64,000 bases of DNA from Candidatus Omnitrophota bacterium (GTDB lineage: Bacteria; Omnitrophota; Gorgyraeia; Zapsychrales; Zapsychraceae), in the NCBI GenBank assembly GCA_020053475.1, contig JAGVNC010000084.1, forward strand, positions 4,201 through 68,200, given 5' to 3'. Shown piece by piece: positions 31,550 through 49,523 of this stretch (the stretch's first letter is position 1; every line of letters begins with the position of its first letter). The notes under the pieces were generated by a model. It was given only the letters and a program-made list of their open reading frames with translations. It did no database searches and was not told the origin of the DNA. Made by a program: the position numbers and the translations under genes.

Positions 31550-31616
31550 AACTAAAGTTACATGTCACAAGTAAAAGCATTTTCTTGTGATTTGTGTCGT
31601 GTGTCTTGTGACTCCT

Positions 31617-32147: not shown

Positions 32148-33103
32148 TGAATTTTTTGATTAAGCTGTTGGATTTTTTCCAAAGCCTTGGCAGCCCAGAC
32201 TGTGTTCTCAAAGCCATCCACAACGGCTTGATAATAAACTTTGGCCGCTTGATAGGATTTTTGTTTTTCATAAAATTGGGCGATGAGAAAAGCGTTTTGG
32301 GCCTCTTTATCGTTGAGGTGCTGGATGTTGACCTTGGCTTCGTCTGAAAACTCGGCATCCGGATAAATCGACACAAACTCTTTAAATTCCTTTGCAGCTG
32401 CCTGAGTGACTTTCTGGTCGTATTGCGCGTCTGTAGACCGCTTCGCGTCGGCAACGGCAATTTGATATTTGGCGGCTTTGACCCATTCGCTATCCGGATA
32501 ATCGTTGATTAATTTTTCAAATTCGTCACGCGACTCCTGATACATCCCTTTTTCCAGGAAAAACAGACCAACCTTATATTGGGACGGTGCGGCCAATTCC
32601 CCGTACGGGGCATTTTTAATCACCGTTCGAAAGACATCGATGACATTATAATCGCCTCCGACAACGGCATTCACAAATTTATTTTGGCTGTTATTCCCCT
32701 CTAAAAGCTTAATGCCGATATCGTATTCTTTTTTGATAATATCCCGGGCACGCTCACTAAAGGGATACCGATCGATCACCAGTTGATATTGTTTAAAGGC
32801 CTGGGATAAATCACCTTGCTCCTCGGAAATAAGGGCAATGTAATATTGAGCTTCGGGGGCCTCGCGGGCGCGGGGATAATGCTTGATGAGCTTATTCAAT
32901 TCGCGGGTGGCCTCTTGATACTGCTTGGACTTATAAAAATCTAACGCCAACTCAAGCTGTTCGCCCGGGGTGTCCTTAACGGAGAATTTGGGGTTTTCCC
33001 ATTTATTGGTTTCCGGCGTCCACATCCAAAACGCGAAAACATTGTTTGTGGGGACCAATAAAAAGACTACTAATAAATATATAAATATTATCTTACGTAT
33101 CAT
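32144..33103 (-). CDS. secreted TPR-repeat protein (BamD/YbgF-like)
   Basis: Signal peptide, then repeated A..Y..A.....G....A...Y TPR-like units; 319 aa. Confidence 0.4.
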   Translation of the reverse strand: MIRKIIFIYLLVVFLLVPTNNVFAFWMWTPETNKWENPKFSVKDTPGEQLELALDFYKSKQYQEATRELNKLIKHYPRAREAPEAQYYIALISEEQGDLSQAFKQYQLVIDRYPFSERARDIIKKEYDIGIKLLEGNNSQNKFVNAVVGGDYNVIDVFRTVIKNAPYGELAAPSQYKVGLFFLEKGMYQESRDEFEKLINDYPDSEWVKAAKYQIAVADAKRSTDAQYDQKVTQAAAKEFKEFVSIYPDAEFSDEAKVNIQHLNDKEAQNAFLIAQFYEKQKSYQAAKVYYQAVVDGFENTVWAAKALEKIQQLNQKIQ

Positions 33104-33258: not shown

Positions 33259-33513
33259 CTACTCGACACGCTCGCAAGAAACCAAATCCCCACTCTCCCA
33301 TGGAGACAGGGGAGTGCCCTCCCCCAACTCTAACTTTTTTGCGGCCATATGAAACTCTTTTGTAGCCTTACAACGAGCTTCGGCTTCATTAGCGGCTTCC
33401 ACTTCATATATCCCTTTGTAACTGCTAGATCTCCAGTGAGGGGATTGTTCATCTATAGATTCTCCTTTTGCGAATTGCTGGAAGCGTTCCGAATATGCCA
33501 GCCTACCAATCAT
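33259..33513 (-). CDS. hypothetical small protein downstream of the giant gene (GC-shifted)
   Basis: 84-aa ORF in the GC-rich block; no recognisable motif. Confidence 0.2.
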   Translation of the reverse strand: MIGRLAYSERFQQFAKGESIDEQSPHWRSSSYKGIYEVEAANEAEARCKATKEFHMAAKKLELGEGTPLSPWESGDLVSCERVE

Positions 33514-33693: not shown

Positions 33694-36600
33694 TCACAGT
33701 CTGGTTTTCGTTGGGATGGGGGGGGACTTAGGCGTGATGGTGCTGGGTGTGACGGTGATGGGTGTGTCATGGGTATAATAGGGGGAAGCGGCTCCCACCG
33801 TATCGATGGCTCGGCAGCGGAGAAGCGCCTGGGCTTTCTCTGACAGGGTGTTCAAATTCCACACGACCGCCTCCCCTGCAGAATGCGTGCCAATGAGATT
33901 CCAGTCTCCTCCGTACACCTCGTACACCTCCTCCCCGATCTCGATGGCAGGAGGAACCGCAGCGGCCAGTGCGCGCTCAAATGCAGGAGCCGGCGTATCG
34001 AGTTGGAAGGTAGGGAAATCTTCGAGGAACAAGGTCAAGGTCTCTCCTGGCAACATGGTGATTGCCGTACTATTCGTTAAGGCATAGTTACAACTGCTCG
34101 CCGGGCCGCTCAGGCAGAACCCTTTCGCGGTGTGATCGAGCTTCGCCGCGGTATCTGGGCCGGGAAGAAAGAGGAGGGCTTCTCCGGTTGTCGAACTCCA
34201 ATACCCGCTCAACGGCGGCCATCCGACCTGCATCGTCGCGAAGCCTGGGATGAGAACAGAAGCGAGGGTTCCATCCATCGACGTGGAGATCCACGTATCG
34301 AAGGAAGGATTGTAGTAACGCGTGTCAAAGAAGCGTACTTCATTGAGCGTAATGGGCGGACCGGTCCGGATGATGCGCAGGAGCGGGCTCTTGGCATTCG
34401 ACCATGCGTGGATCTCGGCCGCCCATCCTGTCCCTTGCTTGGCCACGGCACGCCAGAACGCATAGGTGGCGCTACTCTCTTGGAGCGTGAAGTCGAAAGT
34501 ATGCCATCCGTCTGCGTAGAAGGAGAGCGCCACCGCTGGGCCAGCCGCCCCTGGATACGCAGTATTGAAGACATAGCCCGTGGGATACTGATGGTTGCAC
34601 GTGACTCGTCCAATCGAAGCTGAGAGTTCACAATTAAGACTGATGTCCGTCTGCGGAGCCCAGGACAGATAATTATCATTGGCGATGATGGATCCTGGGT
34701 ACGTTGGCAATGAAGCACCGCTGTTACCATAATAAATAGCATAGTTGGTTTTGCCTTGAATATCTGCAAGAAACGTGATGGTTCCCTGGAGAAGACTGGC
34801 ATAACTGGGCACTTCATTTCCACCCTGGCCACAGGGCGCATCGATGACGCGTATGGCATTGGCCTGACCACCAAACATCGATAAATCCAGGAACACCGGC
34901 GTGGCAGGCCGTGGAATCGGCTGAGGAAGTGGATCGGTGAATGTCACGGTTCGACACGACTGCCATGTCCCTAACGACGCCTCGACGTCATACATCAGCA
35001 AGTCACCTGGAGAATCGGAAGACCCGGAGCAGGCGAGCGCAACCGATTCAAAAAACGTGCCCTTGCAGACGGCACCATTGCAAGAGAGCGACGTGGGAAT
35101 CGTCGGGGGGGTGTTGAGCGTAAAGGTCACCGACGTGAAAGCGGGATGGCCCACCGCATCGTTGGCGAACAGGGTCAGCGAATGGGGGCCGGCAGTGACT
35201 TGCAGGGTGGTCGGCGCACAGGACGGCAGGGCCTGCGGCGGACTCTCGTCGAGCGTGTACCAACATGACGCGACCCCACTGAACGCATCCGTCACGGTAT
35301 AGCTGAGGGGAATCGGGAGCGCGGCATACGTGATGTCCTTTGGCGACTCCAAGGTGATGGCCGGCGGTGTGATATCGAGCGCGATGCTCGCGACCTGGAT
35401 GGTTTCGCTATTGTTCACGATGTCCTGGGAGTGGAATCTGAGGTAGTTCGTCCCCTCTGTCGAGATGAAAAACGGCGCAGAATACGTTAGGAACGGGACA
35501 CACGAATTGTTTTGATCAAGACAATAGAGAGTCGTCGCGCACCCGGCGCCCCCGGCATCGGTACACGTCAACGTCACCAGCGCATCCGTACTCTGCCAGC
35601 CTTGGGGCACGCTGGCGGAAGTCACGGGCGGCAGGTTATCAATGGTAAAGGCCACGGTGGTTGCGGTTTCATGCCCCAGGACATCGCTCGCCCCAATCGT
35701 CAGGTTATGGGGGCCGGGGGAGAGTTGTTGAAGGATGGTGTGCTCACACGCCGGGAGCGTCTGCGCCATGCCGTCATCCAGCGTGTACCAACAACTCTGG
35801 ATGCCACTCAATGCATCGGCCGCTTCGTAGACCACTGGAAGATCAGCCAGCGGGTAGACACTGTTGTTGGTGGGGGACTCGATGACAAGTGACGGGGGTG
35901 TTTTATCGAGCAAGACAATGTGCGACTGGATGGTTTCCAGATTACCGGCGTTATCTTTGGCTTGGATGCGGAGATAATGTGTTCCCTCATTGGAAATCAG
36001 CACGGGGGCTTGATACGGCGTCAGAGGAAGACAGGCATTCTCTTGATCGACGCAATAGTCTATCGTCGCGCACCCGGCACCCCCACTATCGGTACACGTC
36101 AAGGTCACCAGCGCATCCATACTCTGCCAACCTTGGGGAAAGACGCCGGAGGTCACGGGAGGAAGATTATCAATCGTCAGCGTGCCGGATGACACAAGCG
36201 GTTGGCTCTGCTGTCCTTCCGCAGACGCCACACAACGCAAATGCACATTCTCTATTGCATCAAATGCCGACGTATCCCAGAGCACGGAACCGCCAGCCGG
36301 GTGCGTACCGATCGGCGTCCAGGCCTTGAAGGTCGGCACGAGGGGCGCGACAAAGCGATCATACGCTTCCACACTTTGTGGCCCCATCGCCTGCTCCAAC
36401 GAGCCGGTCGTGAAGATCAGCCGCCAGGGATGGATGGTGCCAGACGGGAACGGCTGCACCGACAGCGGATACCAGGTGCCGCCAAAGCTCGGTTGGCCGC
36501 CATTGTTACTGACCCCCAGGGGGTGCGGCAGTTGCGAGGCATAGGTCATCGCGAGCACTTGTTCCAGAGAAAGATTAGATTCGGATTTCGAGATCGCCAC

Positions 36601-39600
36601 GCGCGTCCGCTCCTGGTCGCCAAAGGTAAGCACCGGCGCACTGGCCGAGGCCGTGTAGACACTGGGATTGCTGCCGTAACTGTAAGAGAACGGCGTGGGG
36701 CCGGTTGAGCCGCCGGTGTAGAAGGCCACCGTATCCCCCCACGCCGTGCCTCCATTAAAGGAGGAGCGTACATCAATCCAGGGGCTGCCACGGTAGAATC
36801 GGAACGCCTGCCACGCGAGCCCTCCGGGCTTGGCGCAAGTGACCTCCACGACGACTGGTCCACTGGCCGTCACCGAACAGGCGGCATCGGTGACGGTGCG
36901 ATCAAAGATGGCGGTGCCAGGCCCTGTCCATGTGGTATTGGTCAACATGCCCAGCGACCCATCCGAATCCGGAGCGTTTTCATAATCCCACCCGATGAGC
37001 CCTTGCGTGAGGGAAAACGGTTTGTACACGAGTTCGTGGATGACGCCGCCGGCATGGTCTAGCCAAGCTTTCACCACCGCATTTTCGATGGTACAGTCTG
37101 CGCTGACACAATCGCCGGTGTGCACCAGATCGGAACTGTACGTCGGGGCGCCTTGATCGGTGGTGGCGTAGTAGATCCCGTACGCCACCGGCGTGCCAGC
37201 GGGACGCGTGGCCAGGAAGACCAGGCGGGTGCTCTGATACGTCGTGCCGACCAGCGTCGACTCATACGTTTGCGAAGGAATTTCTTGGCCGCCGGCGCCA
37301 CAGGCCGCATCGACGACCCGTAAGGAATCTTTGAAGGGCGCCTCGGTCCAGACCGAGGCATCCAACATGAGGTCCACCGGTTCCGACTCATAGGCCAGGG
37401 GGGAGGCCGTATCTAATGTCACTGTGAAACACTTCGGAAACGCCGGATTCCACCAGCCGGGTTGTTGCACATCTTGTTCATCTTCATGCCATTCTTCGGC
37501 GGTATACACGAGCGGGTCCTGCTGTGCGTCCGTGGCGCCGCTGCAAACCACATCGATGGTCCCGGAAAACAGCCCGGTGCAATTGCCGTCATTACACTGC
37601 ATCGCGGTCGGCGGTGTCGGGGGGGTGTTCTGTTGGCACGCCAACGTACAGTCTTGCGTGCCGGCCATCACGCCTTCACAGGCAGGGTCAGCTGTACAAC
37701 CCGCAGCATACAGCGACGACCGACAGATCGGCGCGTTGTCTTCTCCGGTACAGATGGCGGAACACGTATCGCTAAAGTAGGTCTTCCCGACGGCGCATCC
37801 CGGAAGATCGCTGCCAGGAAACACCTGATCGCAGGACGCATCCGCACCGCACGCTGCGGCACAAATTTCCGCCACATCATCTCCGCTACCTCCCTGCCAG
37901 TCGCATTGGAAGATTGCAAGCGATGAGCACGCGTCCTGTTCTTTTTCATCACAGTATTGCGGAGCCCCACAGGTGCTCTCGGCCGACAGGACACAATCCG
38001 TACCGGTCACTTCGCAGGCCCGTTCGTTGAACGAGCCGCCGTGTTCACACGCATCTTCATGCGGCGTGGTTTCATCGCACGACGGGGGAGCCCCGAATGC
38101 CTCTTCGCAACTGCCGCCACCGCTACACGTCATCGTGGTGCCAGCACATTGCAGTGACGATTCGAGTTCGCCATTGCGGCAGGCTTCCCCATACGTGTTG
38201 CACGACCCATCCGAGCATGTCTGTCCTGTCGGAGATGCCTCCACGCAATTGCCACCATTGACAGAGCACGCGGCTCCGCAACAGAATCCATTTTTCGCAG
38301 GAACCCCAAGACCGCAGTCGCCGTCGTTGCAATCCACAAATCCATCACAATCATTGTCAACACCGTCGTTGCACAGTTCTGCTTGGAGACAGGAGACGCA
38401 CACGTTACTCAGCGGATTGCTGTCTGGTTTCTTGCAGTAATTGCCCGGGCCGCAGTCCGCGTCCGCCCCGCAGTTCAGCACCAGATAGTTCTCACTATGC
38501 TCGCCAACGTCGAACTGGCCGTTCTCGTTCGTGTCCCAGTACTCCCACAGCTTGCCCCCGTAGAACCCGTACCCGTAGGGATTCCCGGCCGGGTAATTGG
38601 AGAGGCACAGGATGTCGGGGAAGCCGATCTCGTTCACGGGGCCCGTGTACGTCTTCGTGACCGTCACCGCGTTCTCGACCTTCTCGTCGCAGTCCCCGTC
38701 GTAGCAGCCGTAGGACATGGTCTGGGCGAAGTTCACCATGTCGCTCACGAGGTAGCCTGATTTCACCTCGCAGCGGAACCACACCTTGTACGTGTCGCCT
38801 GCGAGCATGTAGTGCTCCAGATAGCCGTCGTTGTCCACGTCCGCATGCTTCCACTGGTAATTGTTCGCGCAGTACGGGCCGTACTTTATGGTGTCGACGT
38901 ACCCGGAGTATGGCGGCTCGTTTACGACGATCGTCCAGTTGTAGCATTCGTTCTCATCGCCGCCGCAGATGTTCTCGTCGGTCTGCCCGTCGCAGTTGTT
39001 ATCCACACCGTCGTGCGGACACACTTCCGTTGTTGGACCCTGCCCTCCGGTGCACGGGCCCCACTGGCCGCTTACGCATGTCTGCGTGCCGAAGGAGCAT
39101 GCTCCTACATCTGTTCCACAGGGCTTGGTCTGACCGTTCACACAACTGCACCCTTCATCCGTGATCCCGTCACAATTATCATCGATGCCGTTGCAGAGTT
39201 CCTGCGCGCCGGGGGTGCCGGTGCTGCAGCTGGATTTGCATTGGGACGTCGTCGGATTGCACCCGTAGGCGCAGTCTTGGACCAATGTTTCCTGAAGAAT
39301 CGTGTCCTGAAGGGCGCAAATACCTTCCATTGGAATGGTCGAGCTGCAGCCATACTGGTACTGGGTGGTGAGCACATAGACATCGTCATTTTTGCAGTAC
39401 GGTGATGAGGAAAAACTGTAGTTTTGCGCTTCACACACTGTTTCGCAAGGATAATAGCCGCATGGGTTCAGTTGGCATGCCAGCCATCCTCCACTGATTT
39501 CACCGATTGCAAGAGCAGAGCAAAAGCCACAATTCAGGAGATCAAAGAACACTTTTAATCCGATCCCTTCTAACAGCATCGTCCCGTAAATCTTAAACGC

Positions 39601-40608
39601 CTTGGCTTTGTTAAGAAGGTCCGGAATCTGCTTGACGAGTTCGCCCAGATCTGCGGCATTTTGAATGAGGCTGGCCGCATCATAAATGTCGGTCCCTTGC
39701 CCACACTTCCCTAAGATGTTTTGCTCGACGAAATCGCTTAGTGTTTGAGAAAAATCTGCAGCCGTGTCGTAATCAACCACCGCGTTGAGTTGATATTGAA
39801 AATTTTGTAACCCATTCAAAATATCCTGTTTACTTTCGCAGACTGTCAGTGCGGCATCTTGCACTAATCCAGTCATATCTCCGAGTAAATACGTAATCGT
39901 ATGCACGGCAGGATTATAGGAAGGATCGGCTTGACCGTTGAACCACTGCGTAAGTGAGATGAACAGATCATACAGTTCATTCGATCCGGCGCCGCACGCA
40001 AAGGAGCAGGGATTGTGGCTATTAAACCAGTCAACGAAATAGCCAAAACACACCGCGCTATTGCAGTCCACTTGGCTTTTCTGGGTGCCAGCATCGGGCG
40101 GGGGGGTAACAACCCGTCGGCTTTTGATGTCCACATCAACTCGTCCCTGTGGTGAATACAATCGCAACAGCAGCGTGCCCTTGTCATCTTTGACCACATC
40201 ACACAAGGCGACCCCTGAGGTGCCTTGCGCCTTATTGTGATGCTGGATCAGATACATGCCGGAGAGTTGTTCTGAAAAGAAGAGCGCGACCGTCATGGTT
40301 GCTTCTGGCGTGTCGAGCTGCACCGCGCGTTGGGTAGGGCGGAATCCTAACTCTTGGGCATAGCGATAGGCATCGCGAACTTGCGGATCTTCGCGAAGGA
40401 ACGTCGTCACTTCATCTGCCGTGAGATGACGAACTGTTGCACCAGAGAGTGTCTGTGATGGAAAGGCCGTGGTGCCGCGGGGTGCCGGTTCTGTGTCAGA
40501 AGCCGCGAGTCGAGGAGAGGCCATAAGAAAAATGGCCACGACGAGCGTCACTGCGAGACACCGTGTTGAGGTAGGACATCGTGCTCCAGCTTGACAAATG
40601 GGGAGCAT
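33694..40608 (-). CDS. giant secreted cysteine-rich repeat protein (2304 aa). It has tandem chitobiase-C/Ig-like modules plus MopE-type C-x-DG-x-DNDCDG repeats
   Basis: Uninterrupted 6.9 kb ORF with ATG at 40608 and an N-terminal signal peptide. Two or more tandem ~190-aa repeats (NLPPVTS..QGWQS.DALVTLTCTD.GGAGCAT..YC.DQ.N.C.P...Y.AP..IS.EGT.YLR). Repeated ELCNDGVDNDCDG / CNGIDDNCDGITDEGC / HDGVDNNCDGQTDEN motifs and dense Cys. GC and third-position GC are markedly higher than neighbouring genes. Confidence 0.8.
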   Translation of the reverse strand: MLPICQAGARCPTSTRCLAVTLVVAIFLMASPRLAASDTEPAPRGTTAFPSQTLSGATVRHLTADEVTTFLREDPQVRDAYRYAQELGFRPTQRAVQLDTPEATMTVALFFSEQLSGMYLIQHHNKAQGTSGVALCDVVKDDKGTLLLRLYSPQGRVDVDIKSRRVVTPPPDAGTQKSQVDCNSAVCFGYFVDWFNSHNPCSFACGAGSNELYDLFISLTQWFNGQADPSYNPAVHTITYLLGDMTGLVQDAALTVCESKQDILNGLQNFQYQLNAVVDYDTAADFSQTLSDFVEQNILGKCGQGTDIYDAASLIQNAADLGELVKQIPDLLNKAKAFKIYGTMLLEGIGLKVFFDLLNCGFCSALAIGEISGGWLACQLNPCGYYPCETVCEAQNYSFSSSPYCKNDDVYVLTTQYQYGCSSTIPMEGICALQDTILQETLVQDCAYGCNPTTSQCKSSCSTGTPGAQELCNGIDDNCDGITDEGCSCVNGQTKPCGTDVGACSFGTQTCVSGQWGPCTGGQGPTTEVCPHDGVDNNCDGQTDENICGGDENECYNWTIVVNEPPYSGYVDTIKYGPYCANNYQWKHADVDNDGYLEHYMLAGDTYKVWFRCEVKSGYLVSDMVNFAQTMSYGCYDGDCDEKVENAVTVTKTYTGPVNEIGFPDILCLSNYPAGNPYGYGFYGGKLWEYWDTNENGQFDVGEHSENYLVLNCGADADCGPGNYCKKPDSNPLSNVCVSCLQAELCNDGVDNDCDGFVDCNDGDCGLGVPAKNGFCCGAACSVNGGNCVEASPTGQTCSDGSCNTYGEACRNGELESSLQCAGTTMTCSGGGSCEEAFGAPPSCDETTPHEDACEHGGSFNERACEVTGTDCVLSAESTCGAPQYCDEKEQDACSSLAIFQCDWQGGSGDDVAEICAAACGADASCDQVFPGSDLPGCAVGKTYFSDTCSAICTGEDNAPICRSSLYAAGCTADPACEGVMAGTQDCTLACQQNTPPTPPTAMQCNDGNCTGLFSGTIDVVCSGATDAQQDPLVYTAEEWHEDEQDVQQPGWWNPAFPKCFTVTLDTASPLAYESEPVDLMLDASVWTEAPFKDSLRVVDAACGAGGQEIPSQTYESTLVGTTYQSTRLVFLATRPAGTPVAYGIYYATTDQGAPTYSSDLVHTGDCVSADCTIENAVVKAWLDHAGGVIHELVYKPFSLTQGLIGWDYENAPDSDGSLGMLTNTTWTGPGTAIFDRTVTDAACSVTASGPVVVEVTCAKPGGLAWQAFRFYRGSPWIDVRSSFNGGTAWGDTVAFYTGGSTGPTPFSYSYGSNPSVYTASASAPVLTFGDQERTRVAISKSESNLSLEQVLAMTYASQLPHPLGVSNNGGQPSFGGTWYPLSVQPFPSGTIHPWRLIFTTGSLEQAMGPQSVEAYDRFVAPLVPTFKAWTPIGTHPAGGSVLWDTSAFDAIENVHLRCVASAEGQQSQPLVSSGTLTIDNLPPVTSGVFPQGWQSMDALVTLTCTDSGGAGCATIDYCVDQENACLPLTPYQAPVLISNEGTHYLRIQAKDNAGNLETIQSHIVLLDKTPPSLVIESPTNNSVYPLADLPVVYEAADALSGIQSCWYTLDDGMAQTLPACEHTILQQLSPGPHNLTIGASDVLGHETATTVAFTIDNLPPVTSASVPQGWQSTDALVTLTCTDAGGAGCATTLYCLDQNNSCVPFLTYSAPFFISTEGTNYLRFHSQDIVNNSETIQVASIALDITPPAITLESPKDITYAALPIPLSYTVTDAFSGVASCWYTLDESPPQALPSCAPTTLQVTAGPHSLTLFANDAVGHPAFTSVTFTLNTPPTIPTSLSCNGAVCKGTFFESVALACSGSSDSPGDLLMYDVEASLGTWQSCRTVTFTDPLPQPIPRPATPVFLDLSMFGGQANAIRVIDAPCGQGGNEVPSYASLLQGTITFLADIQGKTNYAIYYGNSGASLPTYPGSIIANDNYLSWAPQTDISLNCELSASIGRVTCNHQYPTGYVFNTAYPGAAGPAVALSFYADGWHTFDFTLQESSATYAFWRAVAKQGTGWAAEIHAWSNAKSPLLRIIRTGPPITLNEVRFFDTRYYNPSFDTWISTSMDGTLASVLIPGFATMQVGWPPLSGYWSSTTGEALLFLPGPDTAAKLDHTAKGFCLSGPASSCNYALTNSTAITMLPGETLTLFLEDFPTFQLDTPAPAFERALAAAVPPAIEIGEEVYEVYGGDWNLIGTHSAGEAVVWNLNTLSEKAQALLRCRAIDTVGAASPYYTHDTPITVTPSTITPKSPPIPTKTRL

Positions 40609-40740
40609 TACAACGCCTCTAAATCTTTGGGGTTAATCCGCCACTTCCCAATCTTAGTAGCGCGGATGTGTTTTTCCCGAATAAGTTTACGAACTCTGTA
40701 TTCAGTTAACCCAATCTGTTTAGCAACCTGCTCTCTACAG
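40609..40740 (-). pseudogene. start-less excisionase/HTH_17-like DNA-binding ORF abutting the giant gene (TAATG stop/start overlap)
   Basis: Minus-strand translation between an in-frame TAG and TAA reads GIFNCREQVAKQIGLTEYRVRKLIREKHIRATKIGKWRINPKDLEAL. This has the Xis/MerR-type helix-turn-helix-wing pattern. There is no ATG/GTG/TTG in frame. Confidence 0.4.
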
Positions 40741-40970
40741 TTAAATATCCCCTAAGCAATATAATATAGCCTTTATTTTAGATTGTTTAACATGATTTCA
40801 CATCATACCACATTTAAAATTTTATTAACAATCAATTCTTCCCTGGCATCATGGAATGGTTTTTCTTTATTTCCTATCTACTCAATCCATTCCGGCTTAA
40901 TTTTCCAATCGCCTGTTGGGAAAACTTTTTCCGTTGTCAACCATATCATTTGGGGATCCTTTCGACAGCG

Positions 40971-41489
40971 CTATAGCCCTACTTTCAACCCATACATCTT
41001 AATCAATTCCAGAAAGGCTTCGGCGTTGCCCTTGGCGTCGTCAACCGGATTGTGTGTGTGCTTGGTTTTGCGTAAATGCTTAAAATTTTTGGAGGTATCC
41101 CTTACCAACCCTTTATAAAGCGAACCTAAATTCATCGATGAATGGCCAAAAGGGTTCTTGCCAAGAAAATGATGGAAATACCAATTAATAAACTGCCAGT
41201 CAAAACCATTATTGTCGGATATGAATATCGGCCGCCCTTTTATATTGTCAGCCAGCCATTTATCGAAAGATTCCATGACAGTTTTGGAGTTGTCGAAGTT
41301 CAATGTTTCTTCCCGGCTGAATCCCGAAACCTTTAATGCCTCCGGCTCCCATTTTCCCGAAATCGGTTTTAACTTTTTATAGAAAGTCCTTGATAGCGAC
41401 GGCTCAACAATAATTGCTCCAAAGCAAACCATCGAATAATCGCCCGGGATAGGGCCGTCGGCTTCAATATCGACAATGACGTAGCTCAT
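40971..41489 (-). CDS. stand-alone DEDDh 3-prime-5-prime exonuclease (DnaQ-like fold)
   Basis: Exo I VIVDIEADG, Exo II FISDNNGFDWQF, Exo III HTHNPVDDAKGNAEAF; 172 aa. Confidence 0.65.
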   Translation of the reverse strand: MSYVIVDIEADGPIPGDYSMVCFGAIIVEPSLSRTFYKKLKPISGKWEPEALKVSGFSREETLNFDNSKTVMESFDKWLADNIKGRPIFISDNNGFDWQFINWYFHHFLGKNPFGHSSMNLGSLYKGLVRDTSKNFKHLRKTKHTHNPVDDAKGNAEAFLELIKMYGLKVGL

Positions 41490-41595
41490 AATATCTCAGT
41501 TCAAGTTATGTAAGTTTCTTGTAGCCGTTACCATACATAAAAATGCACGAATGTTACAGAAAATGGAATGTTCATGCGTTGAAGGCTGTGTTTCC

Positions 41596-42534
41596 TTATC
41601 CCCACGGTCCCGGGGCTTTCCATTCGCCTGGTATGTTGGCTTTATCGTTGATGGCCAATATGACCGGCTCAAGAAACTCGTTTATTTTCTGCATGATCGC
41701 GGGAAAATGATCGGTGATCTTTTTTTCCCTGATTTTGCGCAGGTAGGCCTGCCATTGTTTCTGCCTGTTTTTATCTTCGAAAAACTCCCCCGTAAAAACC
41801 ACCGGATTTTCCGGCAATGGTGTTTCGCGCCTTGAAAACGCAGCCTGCACGGCCTTAAAGAGAACTTTCCCGGTGAAATTATCGGAAAGAGCAAGGGAAT
41901 AAATATCGTAGAAATCCTTCATGCGGCTGTTCACGAAACTTAATTTGATCATGGCCTCGAACTTTTCCGCGATCATGCTTTCCAGCGAGTAGACCTTTAA
42001 CCGGGGATGCCGGTCCTCCAGGATAGTCGGGAAATCCATCTCAAGCGGTTGAGGAACAATGTCGTCTCCGAAGCCCACATCGATTTGTAATATTTTTCGC
42101 GCCTTTCCTAGAGTTGCCTTGATTTTCAGCCTTATGCCATGATACTCTGCTCCTTCTTTTATGTCTTCTGAATGTACGGATCCGGGATCAAAGATTATCC
42201 CGTCAGCGTATTCAATGCGGGCGATGTCCTGAATGATCGCTTCCAGGCCACGGTGTGAATTCTTAATGCGCTGCGCCAGGAAATCAATGTCGATGGTGGG
42301 CCGTGAATGAGGAACGTCATGACAGACCAGCAGAAGCCCTCCTTTGAGCACAAAAGAGCCGGAATGCTTGCTGACAGACAGACGGTATAAAAACCTCTCC
42401 TGCATGTAGCGTAATAAAAGGGCATCAAAGTCGATGCCCTGGGATCTGGCCAGATTCAATAATTTTGCCTTTATGGAGGCCGGTTTATTTTTGATGTTTT
42501 CTATCATCGTTGTTAAATCATGGCGTTCAGCCAC
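41596..42534 (-). CDS. AbiEii/AbiGii-family nucleotidyltransferase toxin (type IV TA)
   Basis: FLYRLS...FVLKGGLLLVCHDVPHSRPTIDIDFL GG-NTase motif; 312 aa. Paralogous to the partial gene at 1-931. Confidence 0.7.
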   Translation of the reverse strand: MAERHDLTTMIENIKNKPASIKAKLLNLARSQGIDFDALLLRYMQERFLYRLSVSKHSGSFVLKGGLLLVCHDVPHSRPTIDIDFLAQRIKNSHRGLEAIIQDIARIEYADGIIFDPGSVHSEDIKEGAEYHGIRLKIKATLGKARKILQIDVGFGDDIVPQPLEMDFPTILEDRHPRLKVYSLESMIAEKFEAMIKLSFVNSRMKDFYDIYSLALSDNFTGKVLFKAVQAAFSRRETPLPENPVVFTGEFFEDKNRQKQWQAYLRKIREKKITDHFPAIMQKINEFLEPVILAINDKANIPGEWKAPGPWG

Positions 42535-43118
42535 GTCTGAAGCACCGGTTTGACGCGGCAGACGGCGGCAAGTTCCAGGAGTTTTTCAATATTGCGGTTC
42601 TTCCGTTTCAGGTATTCCGTCAGGGCCTCTTTGGCCGTGTCCACTCCAAGTTTGTTTCGATAGCGAAAGCAGTCGCAGATCGTTTTCTCCGGAGAATAAA
42701 TCCTGATCTTCTGATTTTTGACCATGATGGTCTCTACACCGGCATGAAACTGTTTTTCGGAAAAATAGTAGAATTCAACCGGCGGGTATTTAATTTTGGG
42801 ACGCCAGGCTTTCCGATGAATGGCCACAGAAACAACCGAAGGATTGAACGTTGTCAGCTGGTAATAGGAAAGCGCGGAAAGCAGGCAAATAACCCCTTCC
42901 GGAACGGCCTGTGCAATGTCAATAAAACTTTGGTGAGAAACAACAGAAACTTCACTCAGTCTGTAAAGTCCAGTTTTGACTTTATTGATAATCCCTTCGT
43001 CAACCATGGCTCGGATATCTCGCGGGTGCACTCCTTTGGCAAGAAGTTCGCCTGTTCGCGCGTAGCCTTTATGGGCATTGAATATTTGTCGGATTTTCTG
43101 ATATTTCTGATTTGTCAT
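42513..43118 (-). CDS. AbiEi-family antitoxin
   Basis: 201 aa, immediately upstream of and overlapping AbiEii by 22 nt. N-terminal wHTH-like region. Confidence 0.6.
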   Translation of the reverse strand: MTNQKYQKIRQIFNAHKGYARTGELLAKGVHPRDIRAMVDEGIINKVKTGLYRLSEVSVVSHQSFIDIAQAVPEGVICLLSALSYYQLTTFNPSVVSVAIHRKAWRPKIKYPPVEFYYFSEKQFHAGVETIMVKNQKIRIYSPEKTICDCFRYRNKLGVDTAKEALTEYLKRKNRNIEKLLELAAVCRVKPVLQTWLNAMI

Positions 43119-43221: not shown

Positions 43222-44547
43222 TTACTTAACCTCCCAAAGGTGTTTGCGGGTTTCTTCCACAACAACCCCGCTTAAGACAAGCAAGGAGATCAAATTGGGA
43301 ATGGCCATGCAGGCATTGGTAATATCCGCCAACGACCAGACAATCGGCAATGACAAAACCGATCCGGCCATGACCGCCCCCACCCAAAGATAGCGGTAAG
43401 GCTTAATGGCTTTGCTGCCAAAGAGATATTCACAGGCCTTTTCGCCGTAATACGACCATCCCAAAATCGTGGCAATCACAAACGTAAAAAGGCTCACGCT
43501 TAAGACAATAGGCCCGATGACAGGGATGTCATCAAACGCCGCTTTGGCCAAACCAGCCCCATTTAAGCCTAATGTCCAGGCCCCGGAATTCACATACACC
43601 AAACCTGTCAGGGCACACATGACGACCGTGTCCCAAAACGTCCCCGTCGATGAAACGAGCGCTTGACGCACAGGGTTTTTGGTCTGGGCCGCTGCCGCCA
43701 CAATCGCGCCACTTCCCATCCCTGATTCGTTGGAGAAAAGTCCACGGGCGACACCATAACGGACGGCTTCCTTCATCGTGGCCCCCAAAAATCCGCCGAT
43801 CGCGGCCTGGCCCGTAAAAGCGCTTTGAAAAATCAACACAATGGCTTGGGGAAGCGTATCAAATTTTAAAACCAAGAGAATCAGGCATCCTAAAATATTA
43901 AAGATGGCCATGAAAGGAACCAGCGTTTCACACGCTCGGGAAATCGATTTGATGCCTCCCAAAATCACAGCGCCCGTTAACACCATGATGACTAGGCCCG
44001 TGATCCAATGGGGGATATGAAACGTTTCATACACTAGCACAGCCGCCGAATTGGCTTGGACCATATTGCCGATGCCGATGGCTGTGATGGCCGTAAAAAC
44101 CGCAAACAAAACACCCAGCCATTTGCAATTCATCCCCTTCTCCAACACGTACATGGGGCCCCCGGCCATGGCTCCATCCTTGGTCTTTACGCGATATTTC
44201 GATGATAATAAAGCTTCGGCGTATTTCGTCGAGATGCCAAACACGCCTGTAATCCATAACCAAAAAATGGCACCCGGCCCGCCGGAAGCCACCGCAGTGG
44301 CCACACCGACAATATTCCCTGCGCCAATCGTCGCCGCCAACGCCGTCGTCAATGCCCCGAATTGGCTGACATCCCCTTCCCCTTCTTTGGATCGTTCGAA
44401 GGAAATCTTAATGGCCTTGCCGATGTAACGTTGAATAAATCTTAAACGAAATGTTAAAAAAAGATGTGTCCCGCATAAAATCGCCAACGTCCAGGGTCCC
44501 CAAACCCAATTGCTTAGTTCCCCTAGAAATTTTTCCAACTCATGCAT
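43222..44547 (-). CDS. alanine/glycine:cation symporter (AGCS family)
   Basis: ATG at 44547 is preceded by GGGAGG. MHELEKFLGELSNWVWGPWTLAILCGTHLFLTFRL is the family N-terminus. The ORF track's longer frame (to 44634) reads through the upstream hairpin module. Confidence 0.8.
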   Translation of the reverse strand: MHELEKFLGELSNWVWGPWTLAILCGTHLFLTFRLRFIQRYIGKAIKISFERSKEGEGDVSQFGALTTALAATIGAGNIVGVATAVASGGPGAIFWLWITGVFGISTKYAEALLSSKYRVKTKDGAMAGGPMYVLEKGMNCKWLGVLFAVFTAITAIGIGNMVQANSAAVLVYETFHIPHWITGLVIMVLTGAVILGGIKSISRACETLVPFMAIFNILGCLILLVLKFDTLPQAIVLIFQSAFTGQAAIGGFLGATMKEAVRYGVARGLFSNESGMGSGAIVAAAAQTKNPVRQALVSSTGTFWDTVVMCALTGLVYVNSGAWTLGLNGAGLAKAAFDDIPVIGPIVLSVSLFTFVIATILGWSYYGEKACEYLFGSKAIKPYRYLWVGAVMAGSVLSLPIVWSLADITNACMAIPNLISLLVLSGVVVEETRKHLWEVK

Positions 44548-46141
44548 AGGGCCTCCCTGTCCCGCCAAGGCGGGACTTAAATGATCCGTCATTGATCTTA
44601 AAAATGGATGCAGGTTTATTATACCAAGAGCCAAAAAATCTTTTGAGGAATAATATCAAAATTAATAGCCCTGTCCCACCCAGATAATAAATGACCACTT
44701 GCCAAAAATTGACACTCTTAATCAAGAAGTAGGCCCCGGGGAGTTGATCCATCAAATAGATGCTGGCGACAACCACGTTTAACAGTAATTTGAGGCAAAG
44801 GGCAAACATCTGAGCACAATATCCCGAGATAAAGGCGAACGCTAACAGTCCTAATCCTAACGCCACGACCGCACTCATCAGAGGAATCACAATTAAATTG
44901 GCCACAAAAATGATGGGAGTAACGATTTGAAAATAATAGGCAATGAATCCCGCTAACCCTAACCACACGGATAAAGAAATGCCCAAGGCATTGATCAGCC
45001 ATTTGGCATATTGACTGGAAAAGGAAGACGCAATCAATTCGAGCCGGGGCCCTACTAAAATAATAATCAGAACAGCCAAAAAAGATAACTGAAACCCAAT
45101 ATCAAACAAATGAAAAGGATTGATCAATAATAACAGCAGTCCGGCTAATCCTAATGTATTGAACGAATCCGTTGGCCTCTCTAGCAGAAACCCCAAGAGA
45201 AAAACAATGATCATGATTGTCGCCCGTACCACCGAAGGCGGCGATCCTGTTAAGACACAATAAACAATCAATAATCCAATGGCCAGCCAAAGCTGTGTTT
45301 TGCGGCCGATCGGGAATATTTTGAGAATCAACAGGAATAATCCCGCGACAATGCCGACATTAAATCCGCTGATGGCCAAGACATGCACGGTCCCTGTATG
45401 TTCAAACAAGTCCATAATATGCGTCGGGATGGCCGCCCTGTCTCCCAAAATCATCGCACTCATCAAGCCCGCCTCGGCAGGAGACAGATATTGGTCAAAA
45501 ACGCTTGTCAGATGATCCCTCCAGCGAAAAATAGCGGCCAGCCATTGATATTGATATCCCGTTTTCAAAATTTCGACCGACGCTTGGCGCCCGACGCTTA
45601 AAATCCAATAGACGCCCTTCATTTCCAAATAATCCGTGTAGGAAAAATTCCCATCGGAGAAATTATACGGGCGGTGCAACTTGCCTTCGATACGCAAAAG
45701 GTCACCGCAGTGAATCTCTTTGTCCTGAAACACATTGACCAACACTTTTCCGCTCTTTGGGCGCCAGCCCCAGGGCGTTTTAATTTCTTCAACCTGCAGC
45801 GTAAACACTTTTTTCTTCTTGTTAAAAAAAGACCGTGTTTCGACGTCCGTGGCCACCGTGCCTTTGAGCGTTGTTAATTTTCCTGAATAATATCGCGCCA
45901 CGTGATGAATATGGTCTCGCGGGAGAACCTCAACATTTTGTGCATAAAGAAAACTCACGCCGATCAAGGCTGCGCCCAGGCAAACATTCCAACAAATGGG
46001 CCGATGCCGGCCCAACATGGCAACGAAAAGAAACAAACAGCTTAACGCCACGACGCCGGAGAATGAGGCAGAAATGTAACGATGACAAATAATCCCAATC
46101 GCCCAAAACATAAAAATTCCGACAAAAGGCCGTTGGGTCAT
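44540..46141 (-). CDS. comEC: ComEC/Rec2-family DNA internalisation channel (competence domain only, no metallo-beta-lactamase domain)
   Basis: DUF4131-like N-terminus, then the competence domain with HVLAISGFNVGIV; 533 aa. ATGA overlap with comEA. Confidence 0.75.
   Translation of the reverse strand: MTQRPFVGIFMFWAIGIICHRYISASFSGVVALSCLFLFVAMLGRHRPICWNVCLGAALIGVSFLYAQNVEVLPRDHIHHVARYYSGKLTTLKGTVATDVETRSFFNKKKKVFTLQVEEIKTPWGWRPKSGKVLVNVFQDKEIHCGDLLRIEGKLHRPYNFSDGNFSYTDYLEMKGVYWILSVGRQASVEILKTGYQYQWLAAIFRWRDHLTSVFDQYLSPAEAGLMSAMILGDRAAIPTHIMDLFEHTGTVHVLAISGFNVGIVAGLFLLILKIFPIGRKTQLWLAIGLLIVYCVLTGSPPSVVRATIMIIVFLLGFLLERPTDSFNTLGLAGLLLLLINPFHLFDIGFQLSFLAVLIIILVGPRLELIASSFSSQYAKWLINALGISLSVWLGLAGFIAYYFQIVTPIIFVANLIVIPLMSAVVALGLGLLAFAFISGYCAQMFALCLKLLLNVVVASIYLMDQLPGAYFLIKSVNFWQVVIYYLGGTGLLILILFLKRFFGSWYNKPASIFKINDGSFKSRLGGTGRPYA
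44552..44576 (-). promoter_or_regulatory. Family-C hairpin-plus-SD module upstream of the AGCS symporter start
   Basis: Minus strand reads GTCCCGCCTTGGCGGGACAGGGAGGCCCT-ATG. Confidence 0.4.
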
Positions 46142-46494
46142 GGCACTTTCCTCTTTTGGGAAATTTTTAAATAGGGAGCGAATCGTTGAAAATTCTTAGA
46201 CTTGATTCCTTTGATCGATTTGAGTTCTTCTAAGGACGTTAACGGGCCGTGGTCTTGGCGGTAACGAATGATTTGTTGGGCGCTGGAATCCCCGATAAAG
46301 GGAAGCGCGACCAACTCTTCCTGGGTGGCGCGGTTAATATCCACTTTTGGGTACAGGTGGTTGCCTTCAATGACACTAACAATGTTGCTCAGAAAAGGGT
46401 ATTTCTGCAGGGCATAGTGGAAGACCGATCCCGCGAGAACCACGGAGAGGAAAATCAACAACACTTTCTTTTCTTGGGACGTTAAATGAAACAT
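46138..46494 (-). CDS. comEA: ComEA-like helix-hairpin-helix DNA-binding protein
   Basis: N-terminal TM, then VDINRATQEELVALPFIGDSSAQQIIRYRQDHGPLTSLEELKSIKGI (tandem HhH). Confidence 0.75.
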   Translation of the reverse strand: MFHLTSQEKKVLLIFLSVVLAGSVFHYALQKYPFLSNIVSVIEGNHLYPKVDINRATQEELVALPFIGDSSAQQIIRYRQDHGPLTSLEELKSIKGIKSKNFQRFAPYLKISQKRKVP

Positions 46495-46607
46495 TCGCTT
46501 AAAGGCGAATGGGGAATCGGGGGATTAACGCGAAAGCGTTACACGTAGTATATCCAAGATCAGAGAAAATGCAAAATATTTTATCGGCTGAGGGAATAGC
46601 TCCAAAC

Positions 46608-46700
46608 GTGTCCGGCCGGACACTTTTACACTACAATTGGGGCCGCGCGGCCCCAATTGTAGTGTAAACGTTGCCCGCCGGCGAGAATTGTAGTGTAAAT
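46608..46700. promoter_or_regulatory. operator-like palindrome cluster upstream of comEA: a 16-bp and a perfect 40-bp palindrome plus a third AATTGTAGTGTAAA half-site
   Basis: gtgtccggccggacac, then tacactacaattggggccgcgcggccccaattgtagtgta (perfect), then gagaattgtagtgtaaatt. Located 110-190 nt upstream of the comEA ATG. Confidence 0.4.
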
Positions 46701-46735
46701 TATTTTTCATATGCTCCTTAACTTGCATTGATTTT

Positions 46736-48376
46736 TCATCTCTCTCCATTTTTAAGGACGACAAGGCCTTCCTTATTGGTATAAGCAAGAAAATACTTTG
46801 AATCTTTCGCCTTAAGATATTTTCTGAAGAGGAACTCTTCTGCTAAGCCCTTCTTAATATTTTCATCTTTAGCCTGACCAATATAAATCTGCACGGGACG
46901 CTTAGCTTCATTTTCAACGATATCAAAGGAAAAATCCGGTTCCTTCTTATGCTGATTCTTAAAGCGTTCCAATTGGGAAACCAATTGTCCCCAAGAACGG
47001 TATTTTGCAGACATCTCACGATTAAACTGAAAACTCATCCAAGCATTTAAAATGATACTCATAAGTAAGATAGTAAAAAGAAGGCTTTTCTGATGATCAA
47101 ATCTCTTGATCTCTATATTTTTGTAGGAAGATGTAAAAGTGATTAAAAACATGGTTAAAAAAAGAGCTAAAGGATAAAAATGATGCAATTGATACGTCAA
47201 ATAAACGAAAGACCTATCAGATACTCTCCCCAATAAAACAAATAAAAGGTAACACCAAAAAAGGATAAAACTTAATGACCGAATGGGATAAAGAGGACCC
47301 TTCTTGAAGGTCTCTAATTCTGAATTCTTGTTGAGTAAACTAAAACGTACTATTCTATAAAGACCTATCAAACAAAGACAAACCAACAAAAGATTAAGGC
47401 TGCTCAAAAAAGGATTGGCAATCAGGTCATATACAAATTTTTCCCGCGTCGGCAAATAAAGCATTGGTTTGTCACCGGAATTGATTTGAATAAAAACAGG
47501 GAAAATAAGCGATTGAATAAAGAAATTTAACGTAGCGAATAGCTGCTTTATCAGAATAAACCCGTCAAACTTTATCGCCTTGCTAAAAATTTCAACACGC
47601 GAATGAACAAAATAATCCATAAAATTGGCAACAAAATAACTGACCGCAGGGATACAGAGTAGGGAAACGGATTTTCGCAGGCCATGCCCTCTACTCTCCT
47701 CTTTGCTTACACTTTTCAACAGAAACATGACAAACACAATGTTGACCAAAATAGAAAATTCATAAGTCAAACACCCCAATGTAAGGAATAAAACCGCTAA
47801 CGATAAATGCCGTTGAGCATTTTGGGGGAAGTGCAGAAAAGAAATAAAATGCTGCAAAGATTGAAGAATAAGAATCAAAGCCAGAAGATATCCGTTTACA
47901 TGATGCCAAATGACCATCTCTTGGCTTAGAGCCGTGACCGAAAAATTTAATAAAAATAGCACCAAGATAAGATTTGGAGCTATAGCCTTAAATAAACGTA
48001 ACAGCTGGCCAATCAAAATCAGATGAAAGATTATCCCCAGCATCTGCCAATAGATAAAGTTATAACCAAAAAATAATTCTTCAAGGCTTAACAACAAAAA
48101 GAAAATAGGCCGGAAAAGAAGTTGGTCACCACCCGACAAAAACATGTTGCGATTGTAGGAGAGACTGAAGGCAAGTTTATCGAAAAAATGATCGAAAGCT
48201 GACGTTTGGATAAGATAAGTAAGCTGATCTGCCCGAGCGACATGAAACAAAGAAGGGAAGTAAACCACGCAATTGGCTAACAGAAGAATTACAAGACCAA
48301 TCCAATATTTATTTTGGGACTCACTATTATCTTTGTCAGAATTTATTTGTATCTTATCTCCTCCCATAAGCTCCAT
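46736..48376 (-). CDS. polytopic membrane protein, third divergent TMTC/PMT-like GT-C paralog (no TPR tail), AT-rich
   Basis: 546 aa, about 12 TM helices, and loop motifs ARADQ and GGDQLLFRPIFFLL echoing the YRPL motif of the 8640 and 10667 paralogs. Codon usage is visibly more AT-rich than neighbours. Confidence 0.35.
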   Translation of the reverse strand: MELMGGDKIQINSDKDNSESQNKYWIGLVILLLANCVVYFPSLFHVARADQLTYLIQTSAFDHFFDKLAFSLSYNRNMFLSGGDQLLFRPIFFLLLSLEELFFGYNFIYWQMLGIIFHLILIGQLLRLFKAIAPNLILVLFLLNFSVTALSQEMVIWHHVNGYLLALILILQSLQHFISFLHFPQNAQRHLSLAVLFLTLGCLTYEFSILVNIVFVMFLLKSVSKEESRGHGLRKSVSLLCIPAVSYFVANFMDYFVHSRVEIFSKAIKFDGFILIKQLFATLNFFIQSLIFPVFIQINSGDKPMLYLPTREKFVYDLIANPFLSSLNLLLVCLCLIGLYRIVRFSLLNKNSELETFKKGPLYPIRSLSFILFWCYLLFVLLGRVSDRSFVYLTYQLHHFYPLALFLTMFLITFTSSYKNIEIKRFDHQKSLLFTILLMSIILNAWMSFQFNREMSAKYRSWGQLVSQLERFKNQHKKEPDFSFDIVENEAKRPVQIYIGQAKDENIKKGLAEEFLFRKYLKAKDSKYFLAYTNKEGLVVLKNGER

Positions 48377-48647
48377 ATGATGGTTATATTAGCCTTGATG
48401 ATATAGGGATTGCCGACAGTTGTCCAAGTGGTAGGCGTTGTAATATTCGTAGTAACATCGGTGGCGAGAGCTAATGGACAAAAGATAAAGAGAAAAAAGG
48501 TTAAAAGTCCGAAAACAATCTCGCGCTTTCGCTCAAAACCTTTTCTAATTGAATTAAGGAATGAATACATAGTTTTCCGCAAAAATAAAGCCAAAGAAAG
48601 GAATATTGTGGCTATATTCCGAAGAACCTGAATGGGGTAGTTTAAGT

Positions 48648-48760
48648 TTACCCTAGAATCACAAAGTTAATCAGCTTCCCGGGGACATAAATAAACTTTT
48701 TGACGGGCTTATGCTGAACAAATTCCTGGATCTTGGCATCCCCCAAGGCGAAATAAACGG
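48648..48760 (-). repeat. ghost copy of the leuS 3-prime end (direct repeat / att-like scar)
   Basis: Encodes [36 protein letters not shown] versus the LeuS C-terminus ...[32 protein letters not shown]. About 80 percent nucleotide identity with 49524-49636. Confidence 0.6.
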
Positions 48761-48842
48761 GTCAACTCCCTTTCCCTCGCTCTTCATTATACAATATACC
48801 CCAAGTCATGAGGGTTGGCAAAAAAATAAATGGGCCCCAGGC

Positions 48843-49358
48843 TTACGCATGGAACCCAATCCTGCCCTTGGGCTTCTCATCTTCAGCCATCAGCCGGCGG
48901 ATGGCGTCGAAGATACGCTGGACCTCTTCATCTTTTTCATCCATCCTTCTTTCGAGCTGGCCTAATTTCTTGGCCAAGGCATTGTGGCCGCTTAAAATCT
49001 TCCTTAATTTCACAAACGCCCTCATAATGGCGATGTTGACCTGCACCGCGCGCTCACTGTTCAAAACACTGGAAAGCATGAGGATCCCGTGTTCCGTGAA
49101 AGCGAAAGGATCTTTCCGCAACCCCATCTTCTCCTTATTGGATATAACAATTTGTGATATCCAATTTTGAGTCTCTGCCTTGGTGAGCTGGAACATAAAA
49201 TCACACGGGAACCTGTTCTTATTTCTTTTCACAGCCTGATTGAGCGCCCCTGTCTCCACCCCATACAATTCGGCCAGATCTCTATCAAGCATGACCTTTT
49301 GCCCACGGATCAGAAAGATCTTTTGCTGGATCACCTGTACGTCGACGCCTGTACGCAT
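48843..49358 (-). CDS. ORF6N/KilA-N-like domain protein (phage antirepressor-type)
   Basis: IRGQKVMLDRDLAELYGVETGALNQAVKRNKNRFPCDFMFQLTKAE is the ORF6N signature, followed by a coiled-coil tail; 171 aa. Confidence 0.6.
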   Translation of the reverse strand: MRTGVDVQVIQQKIFLIRGQKVMLDRDLAELYGVETGALNQAVKRNKNRFPCDFMFQLTKAETQNWISQIVISNKEKMGLRKDPFAFTEHGILMLSSVLNSERAVQVNIAIMRAFVKLRKILSGHNALAKKLGQLERRMDEKDEEVQRIFDAIRRLMAEDEKPKGRIGFHA

Positions 49359-49523
49359 AAAAAATCCCCCTTCAGTTTATAGAACTTAACCAAGGGGGAT
49401 GAAATTGAACGACGCTATCTTATGATTTAGCGATTAATTTGTCAACCGGAGAATCTTCCCGTGTCAAACCAAAATTAAAATGTCCTAATTTTTTAGAGGA
49501 GTTGGGACACGTAACTTTATTTA

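Follow-up and report, generated by a model that had tools for sequence, protein, structure and literature searches.

Excisionases, the recombination directionality factors of mobile elements, share a small winged-helix fold with regulators that have no part in recombination, such as BldC and MerR. Head-to-tail binding to direct repeats in phase is a property of both lambda-type Xis and BldC. Structurally solved excisionases of this kind, which come under the profile HTH_17 (PF12728)/TIGR01764, are Pukovnik Xis (4j2n), Tn916 Xis (1y6u) and RdfS (8dgl). BldC of Streptomyces (PDB 6ama), which like the N-terminal domain of MerR has this fold, is a small stand-alone protein that acts in development.

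Small regulators also stand at the head of anti-phage defence genes. Defence systems and islands of various kinds are preceded by genes for the autoregulating repressors BrxR and CapW (PMC9122601, PMC9122589); these proteins are wHTH-WYL dimers on inverted repeats. The controller (C) proteins of restriction-modification (RM) systems, which are of the XRE type, follow the same concept, a regulator gene placed ahead of defence. Another case is MAD1, a helix-turn-helix (HTH) protein of ~50-60 amino acids that is encoded by the first gene of the methylation-based MADS operon and is described as an accessory 'widespread regulator', the deletion of which has a limited effect on defence (10.1101/2023.03.30.534895).

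Here, we describe a computational analysis of a short HTH frame that abuts a giant gene in a 64,000-nucleotide stretch of an Omnitrophota contig, referred to below as the window. Giant genes are a known trait of Omnitrophota (10.1101/2023.11.21.568195). The frame is very probably a dead copy of a small HTH gene that heads defence operons elsewhere, a judgement that extends to the proposed regulator and promoter. The intact family matches the excisionase profile, and the model of one of its members resembles the three solved excisionases (TM 0.68-0.76); the family differs from excisionases in heading defence operons, with neither a recurring integrase partner nor a position at island ends observed, and the window copy is a pseudogene. 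From BldC the family differs in sequence (12% identity) and in context, which is development for BldC and defence operons here. With BrxR/CapW and the C proteins it would share the placement of a regulator ahead of defence, but its proteins are 57-residue HTH_17 proteins with a putative direct-repeat operator.

A start-less frame and its lesions

The start-less frame begins after an in-frame TAG at 40754..40752 (-) and runs for 47 sense codons, 40751..40611 (-), specifying the peptide GIFNCREQVAKQIGLTEYRVRKLIREKHIRATKIGKWRINPKDLEAL. ATG, GTG and TTG are absent from it except for the last codon, a TTG. Its TAA, 40610..40608 (-), shares the last A with the giant-gene ATG, 40608..40606, to give TAATG at 40610..40606. 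Both the frame and its joint to the giant gene had been recorded by the first-pass annotation, a reading of the letters without database searches, which put the length at 46 codons, one fewer than we count. A profile search confirmed the predicted domain: the match to Pfam HTH_17 (34.9 bits against a cut-off of 27, E 1.9e-8) is far above chance. It covers profile positions 5-45 of 51; what had been missed is the N-terminus of the domain, which lies in the adjacent frame. The features that bear on this region are as follows.

40611..40751, reverse strand: the start-less frame of 47 codons, equivalent to family residues 10-49 after 7 out-of-frame codons
40733..40762, reverse strand: N-terminal fragment ILLRGYLTVE (ATA TTG CTT AGG GGA TAT TTA ACT GTA GAG) in the adjacent frame, located by tblastn and DNA alignment
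40731..40736, reverse strand: (AG)3 run with a 2-nt insertion, GTAGAGAGCAG here and GTAGAGCAG with (AG)2 in intact homologues
40606..40619, reverse strand: junction with the giant gene; GAGG at 40619..40616 lies inside the HTH codons D-L-E, 7 nt before the giant-gene ATG
33694..40608, reverse strand: giant gene encoding a Cys-rich protein of 2304 aa with a signal-peptide-like N-terminus, MopE-type motifs and Ig-like domains

Read from its TTG, the adjacent frame runs TTG CTT AGG GGA TAT TTA ACT GTA GAG AGC (M L R G Y L T V E S), in which YLTVE is the usual beginning of an HTH_17 domain. Deletion of one AG from GTAGAGAGCAG fuses the two frames into MLRGYLTVEQVAKQIGLTEYRVRKLIREKHIRATKIGKWRINPKDLEAL (MLRGYLTVEQVAKQ...), which scores 44.8 bits with HTH_17 where the start-less frame scores 34.9, and whose match runs over positions 1-45 of the profile in place of 5-45. 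The repaired peptide scores 39.5 bits with TIGR01764 (cut-off 28.8), in keeping with its earlier assignment to an excisionase-family domain. In a database of 5.8 billion sequences the repaired 49-mer matches 71 proteins, nearly all 57 aa long, with E-values down to 4e-19; nearly all of these matches show 67-86% identity across residues 1-49, the full query. The closest proteins read MLLRGYLTVEQVAKQIGLTEYRVRELIREK.IRATKIGKWWIKPKDLEEFIKARTNK, and the family sequence at the repair point, LLRGYLTVEQVAKQ (VEQVA), is exactly that predicted by removal of AG. When the family consensus was compared with the window by tblastn, residues 1-10 matched 40762..40733 and residues 10-50 matched 40733..40611, in different frames. 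A wing-like peptide further upstream, GDWKIKPEWIE at 40913..40881 (-), was also considered as a homologous segment; with an E-value of 0.44 and no Pfam match, it was taken as chance.

An intact homologue with a start codon, which the first-pass annotation had proposed to look for in related genomes, is found: intact homologues begin with an ordinary ATG and stay in one frame. Their identity to the window copy is as high as 86% in protein and 94% in DNA, the closest locus (L017) having 93.8% DNA identity over 227 nt by blastn. We aligned window positions 40880..40540 (-) with nine sequences from loci with intact genes, and this DNA alignment reveals three disabling changes, which upholds the earlier suggestion of a decayed remnant. 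First, the family ATG start has become ATA at 40762..40760 (-). Second, a 2-nt AG insertion, absent from all nine homologue sequences, causes a +2 frameshift after codon 10 and splits the gene across two frames. Third, the 3' end has been lost: where intact copies have their last 8 codons (FIKARTNK) and stop, the window has G-TAA-TG and the giant gene, which is richer in GC. The missing codons encode most of a conserved helix (residues 44-55 in the model described below) with the invariant residues F50, R54 and N56, and the window copy is not an ATG-started, single-frame ORF carrying that helix. As judged by sequence comparison, the start-less frame is an ordinary pseudogene that derives from a tight HTH_17 family of 57-aa proteins.

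We weighed two rival explanations of the split frame and its surroundings. According to one, the frame encodes a regulator translated by an unusual mechanism, as the first-pass annotation had offered as an option, either through a -1/+2 programmed frameshift from the TTG frame or through initiation at ATA or ATT. A 44-nt overlap of the frames makes a shift geometrically possible, the product of such a shift would reach 36 bits with HTH_17, and the window copy has kept both its promoter and the overlap of its stop with the start of the next gene. However, every intact homologue starts with ATG and is read in a single frame, which makes the split peculiar to the window copy; the exceptions to this nearly uniform single-frame pattern (e.g. 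L067) are other decayed copies, and plainly decayed copies of the HTH gene occur at other loci as well. The 44-nt overlap (GGA TAT TTA ACT GTA GAG AGC AGG TTG CTA AAC AGA TTG GGT) contains no slippery heptamer of the form X XXY YYZ, and the site is unlike the textbook prfB site that the window does contain (CTT TGA C with AGGGGG upstream). Moreover, any product would be without the invariant F50, R54 and N56. We regard this explanation as exceedingly improbable; special translation need not be invoked and is not likely, and a peptide of at most 17 aa could be made from the TTG at 40759 (-).

The other explanation is an artefact, consisting of a 2-nt error in a functional, truncated gene that starts at the TTG, or of a chimeric join at a repeat. 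The source is indeed a 77.8-kb metagenomic contig, the indel sits in a dinucleotide run, and the module to which the HTH gene belongs is a multi-genome repeat (70-94% DNA identity) that could mislead assemblers. Nevertheless, three independent lesions are needed, of which an error explains at most one, and the GC-rich segment is bordered on both sides by ~45% GC DNA with syntenic housekeeping genes, so that two chimeric joins would be required; furthermore, two annotation sources record the same gene products for the contig. We consider such an artefact very improbable. The AG insertion taken alone could be a metagenome-assembly error, and the other two lesions would remain.

The intact family and its neighbours

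The family is found in 55 loci of GTDB genomes, mostly of Omnitrophota. The other hosts belong to Planctomycetota, Elusimicrobiota, Nitrospinota and Thermodesulfovibrionia, to the CPR lineages Saccharibacteria and Jorgensenbacteria, and to the DPANN lineages Aenigmatarchaeota and Pacearchaeota. Most of the 55 loci are 60-86% identical to the repaired window peptide. Similarity at this level across phyla implies horizontal spread; of the link to mobile DNA drawn by the first-pass annotation, what is supported is that the HTH gene family is horizontally mobile. The tight family is rare in IMG/VR (5 contigs) and absent from cultured phage and plasmid collections, where there are only relatives of less than 50% identity. 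Copies binned with DPANN and CPR genomes occur in L039 (Aenigmatarchaeota), L071 (Pacearchaeota), L018 (Saccharibacteria) and L033 (Jorgensenbacteria); three of these have 71-86% identity to the repaired peptide and the decayed Pacearchaeota copy has 52%. They could reflect inter-domain transfer or the mis-binning of a mobile island.

Throughout the surveyed family loci, the HTH gene is closely followed by a gene on the same strand. In ~12 loci its stop codon overlaps the next start (ATGA or TAATG), and in most others the gap is less than 40 nt. The neighbouring genes are of the following kinds.

First gene downstream: methyltransferases N6_N4 and HsdM; RadC; ResIII/DEAD helicases; HATPase_c_3; SNF2
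First gene downstream, further kinds: AAA_15/23, DUF4062, AIPR, GmrSD; PADLOC mad2; type I/II methyltransferases
Further downstream, to 7 kb: HsdS, HsdM, RadC, SIR2, C5 methylases, BrxC/D, AlwI, GmrSD
Upstream, within 4.5 kb: housekeeping genes, for the most part unrelated
Decayed copies of the HTH gene: L038b, L039, L058, L060, L063, L065, L067, L070, L071

The intact family heads anti-phage defence genes, namely methyltransferases, RadC, BREX, type I RM and helicase-nucleases. A likeness to MADS is evident in 10 of the 55 downstream cargo genes, which match PADLOC mad2, but the cargo of the family is far more varied. The family scores only 19.7 bits with the MAD1 model NF047737 against a cut-off of 80, and is therefore not a MAD1 equivalog; with PADLOC mad1 (PDLC04133) it scores 21.7 bits (E 4.5e-5).

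This neighbourhood bears on the first-pass annotation's other option, that the frame is the decayed excisionase, or recombination directionality factor, of a mobile element by which the giant gene was brought in. The domain does belong to the excisionase family, with TIGR01764 scores of 39.5-48.7 bits, and at the homologous locus L001 a serine recombinase is encoded ~4 kb upstream of the HTH gene. A linkage to recombinases is nevertheless not found: no recombinase or integrase family recurs near the HTH genes among 90 ORFs upstream (within 4.5 kb) and 89 downstream (within 7 kb), a survey of the most frequent families among 179 ORFs in which only families common to several loci would show. The HTH gene is instead closely joined to the first defence gene. 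The attribution to the giant gene's element thus conflicts with ~55 intact loci at which the gene heads defence genes.

Several loci carry two modules in tandem, each with its own cargo: L027 (at 1421 and 5432), L038 (1132 and 2985) and L057 (8001 and 13002). About 10 loci have decayed copies, mostly 5'-truncated yet still attached to cargo, which makes decay of the HTH gene commonplace. Together, tandem and decayed modules suggest cassette arrays with recombination within the module; tandem and 5'-truncated copies would, on this proposal, mark the swapping of cassettes.

A shared motif, its probable promoter role and the proposed regulator

Of 45 family genes, 38 are preceded by a 25-nt motif, ATGTG-GTATA-ATGTG-AAATA-ATGTT, which is all but confined to these sites in the 1.48 Mb of fetched loci. 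It comprises three ATGTK units in 10-bp phase, with a consensus TG-extended -10 element (TATAAT) between the first two, and usually ends 24-27 nt before the HTH ATG. The motif is probably a combined promoter and putative operator. The window retains it, together with two associated features:

40789..40813, reverse strand: promoter/operator motif ATGTGGTATGATGTGAAATCATGTT with 2 mismatches; -10 element TATGAT at 40807..40802, TG-extended
40826..40831, reverse strand: -35-like TTGTTA; promoter-like site 40831..40802
40773..40793, reverse strand: mini-ORF MLNNLK* of six codons, ATG to TAA, between the -10 element and the HTH gene, kept in the closest homologues

The mini-ORF stop overlaps the Shine-Dalgarno position, which reads AAGG in the window and GAGG in the closest homologues; its ATG is conserved because it is part of the third repeat, ATGTT. 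The -10 element TATGAT and the Shine-Dalgarno AAGG were considered as extra lesions and rejected: both are present in intact copies (L027a, L001-8) and are therefore not counted as decay.

An AF2/AlphaFold model of the intact homologue P0001 (pLDDT 83.9) combines a helix-turn-helix with a wing of two strands and a helix at the C-terminus. No meaningful match came from searching PDB sequences with the family profile. By structure, a Foldseek search with the P0001 model retrieved Pukovnik Xis (TM 0.76) and BldC (TM 0.74), and also RacA, RdfS, Tn916 Xis and a MerR-type N-terminal domain. The intact homologue is thus predicted to have the winged-helix Xis/MerR-type fold. The presence of Pukovnik Xis, Tn916 Xis and RdfS among the best structural matches could be read in favour of an excisionase, but the same fold is common to the non-recombination regulators BldC and MerR. 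The fold fits both an excisionase and a regulator, and genomic context favours the regulator.

In the best-supported model, which draws on context and fold, the intact members are small transcription regulators. Direct-repeat binding by BldC would match the three 10-bp-phased ATGTK repeats as a putative operator. By analogy, the intact protein may be an autorepressor that acts on its own promoter, with the ATGTK repeats as the likely operator and head-to-tail binding, and that would also control the defence genes tightly or translationally coupled behind the HTH gene. Promoter, operator and HTH gene would together constitute a portable 5' module of defence cassettes, moving between phyla. Such a module is apparently undescribed as such in the searchable literature.

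The junction with the giant gene and the surrounding DNA

Module homology extends through GAGGCGTT and breaks off between 40612 and 40611 (-), 4 nt short of the giant-gene ATG. All blastn matches of the region to 75 fetched loci lie inside 40844..40612 and end at 40612-40641. This end of module homology so close to the ATG marks a rearrangement junction. The event may have been an insertion of the giant gene that displaced the module's cargo, or a deletion of former cargo that joined the module with a giant gene already in place. Two further possibilities were rejected. A simple insertion of the giant gene with a leftover HTH 3' end found no support, as a search of the window for that end gave no match at up to 3 mismatches. 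An apparent similarity past the junction in the MAFFT alignment, which implied a 15-nt insertion, was not significant in local alignment (the best score was reached by 101 of 2000 shuffles).

With just 4 nt between the end of module homology and the ATG, the promoter of the giant gene must lie in or upstream of the pseudogene, where the candidate promoter TTGTTA-18-TATGAT with its TG is kept at 40831..40802 (-). The near-consensus promoter of the dead module would probably transcribe the giant gene, and the GAGG in the module's 3' end would supply ribosome binding; we infer from these positions that both probably now serve the giant gene. As the giant-gene start abuts the rearrangement junction, its expression signals have probably been borrowed from a dead defence-regulator module. 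Expression from this module would be unregulated, its putative repressor having been lost; should the genome encode an intact HTH paralogue at another site, that protein might still control the retained operator. The giant-gene start differs between NCBI and JGI (2304 and 2285 aa); the ATG start gives the better signal-peptide n-region.

What stands directly downstream of the HTH remnant in the window is not a defence-type gene but one for a secreted, Cys-rich giant protein, which is unrelated to the cargo of L009 and to the cargo families of the other loci; none of 55 cargo genes resembles it. The giant gene merely abuts the HTH module and is not part of it. Its GC3 of 0.655 lies above the 0.49-0.61 of its neighbours, but over the first 1.2 kb it is host-like (0.49-0.55), rising thereafter to 0.62-0.77; its high GC2 reflects amino-acid composition. 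A foreign origin of the giant gene is possible on compositional grounds. A word-indexed search for relatives of the N-terminal 460 aa found none among the 8000 candidates at which it was capped, a weak result in that the protein's own cluster was also missed, and a metagenome scan with the N-terminus gave only three distant matches, to residues 402-453. The protein carries MopE motifs of the CNGIDDNCDG type and near-repeated blocks, LTIDNLPPVTS...TLTCTD.GGAGCAT at residues ~1475 and ~1690 and two 'TVTxD...' blocks at residues ~1060 and ~1890.

Upstream of the HTH remnant lies a small defence islet, 40971..43118, with three genes.

42513..43118, reverse strand: AbiEi (AbiEi_4), by Pfam
41596..42534, reverse strand: AbiEii, by Pfam
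40971..41489, reverse strand: stand-alone DEDDh exonuclease (RNase_T) of 172 aa, PADLOC 'Effector Exonuclease', E 9e-40

At L008 the gene order is AbiEi-like - AbiEii - HTH_17 - RadC - type I RM, with the AbiE and HTH genes ordered as in the window, and the remnant accordingly belongs to this islet. The module may have come with the AbiE/exonuclease islet, its cargo then being lost or replaced as the module decayed. Adjacency of exonuclease and module is not conserved, as shown by L073-75, where a gene with 85.9% DNA identity to the window exonuclease gene is not followed by the module. The exonuclease neighbours at L073-75 are defence-like: DUF6088-AbiEii, a metallophosphatase and NTP_transf_8.

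Past the islet on the upstream side are genes for a Na/Ala symporter, ComEC and LeuRS; the downstream side has genes for a BamD-like protein, LptE, HolA, MurJ, UvrC, PilT and RF2. In many bacteria leuS, comEC, lptE and holA are neighbours. In the window, leuS/comEC (44540-52010) and lptE-holA (30896-33103) are parted by ~12 kb containing the symporter gene, the AbiE pair, the exonuclease gene, the HTH remnant, the giant gene and the BamD-like gene, and the interval may be a variable insertion hotspot. A 546-aa ORF between ComEC and LeuRS (46736-48376 (-); GC 0.36, GC3 0.38), with no PDB sequence relatives, is a compositional outlier that may be another acquired gene. The 590 nt that separate the giant gene from the BamD-like gene contain an 84-aa ORF, 33259-33513 (-), for which Pfam gave no match. 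A search of the window with Rfam found three tRNAs only. The prfB (RF2) +1 frameshift site at 25880-25950 (-), ATG...AGG GGG TTT CTT TGA C, precedes the ORF 24851-25837; the main prfB ORF matches RF2 only from ~residue 35 on, which is classical known biology.

Two features of the locus speak for delivery by a mobile element with its own excisionase: the raised GC3 of the giant gene, and a setting amid housekeeping genes (leuS/comEC on one side, lptE-holA on the other) whose synteny recurs in other bacteria. No recombinase is present among the annotated window genes from ~24.8 to 52 kb, however, all of which are housekeeping or defence genes, and the cargo of the family, at 0 of 55, and the host-like GC3 at the start of the giant gene also argue against it. 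That the frame is the remnant of such an excisionase is, in our judgement, highly unlikely. The claim that the frame ties the giant gene to mobile DNA likewise loses its footing, the link being one of position only, with module homology ending short of the giant-gene ATG. An excision factor and an unusual translation are both unsupported, given the three lesions and an intact gene that heads defence genes, with its own promoter and without a recurring recombinase; for the window, an exotic translation and an excisionase tie between the giant gene and a mobile element are both removed. The preferred reading remains that of a dead defence-regulator gene.

A broader proposal, which we hold only tentatively and think somewhat doubtful, is that the HTH_17 gene with its invariant promoter and ATGTK operator constitutes an undescribed, portable head module, spread horizontally across Omnitrophota, Planctomycetota, Elusimicrobiota, Nitrospinota, CPR bacteria and DPANN archaea, that regulates whatever defence cassette recombines behind it, a dead example of which has been co-opted by the giant gene. 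The window finding itself is ordinary; the intact family and its conserved promoter-operator module are modestly interesting, as a compact, very conserved promoter-operator-regulator unit ahead of RM, BREX and other defence systems in poorly studied phyla. Should it be confirmed, the module would help to locate defence cassettes in genomes of Omnitrophota, CPR and DPANN, and would stand as a counterpart to the regulators BrxR/CapW.
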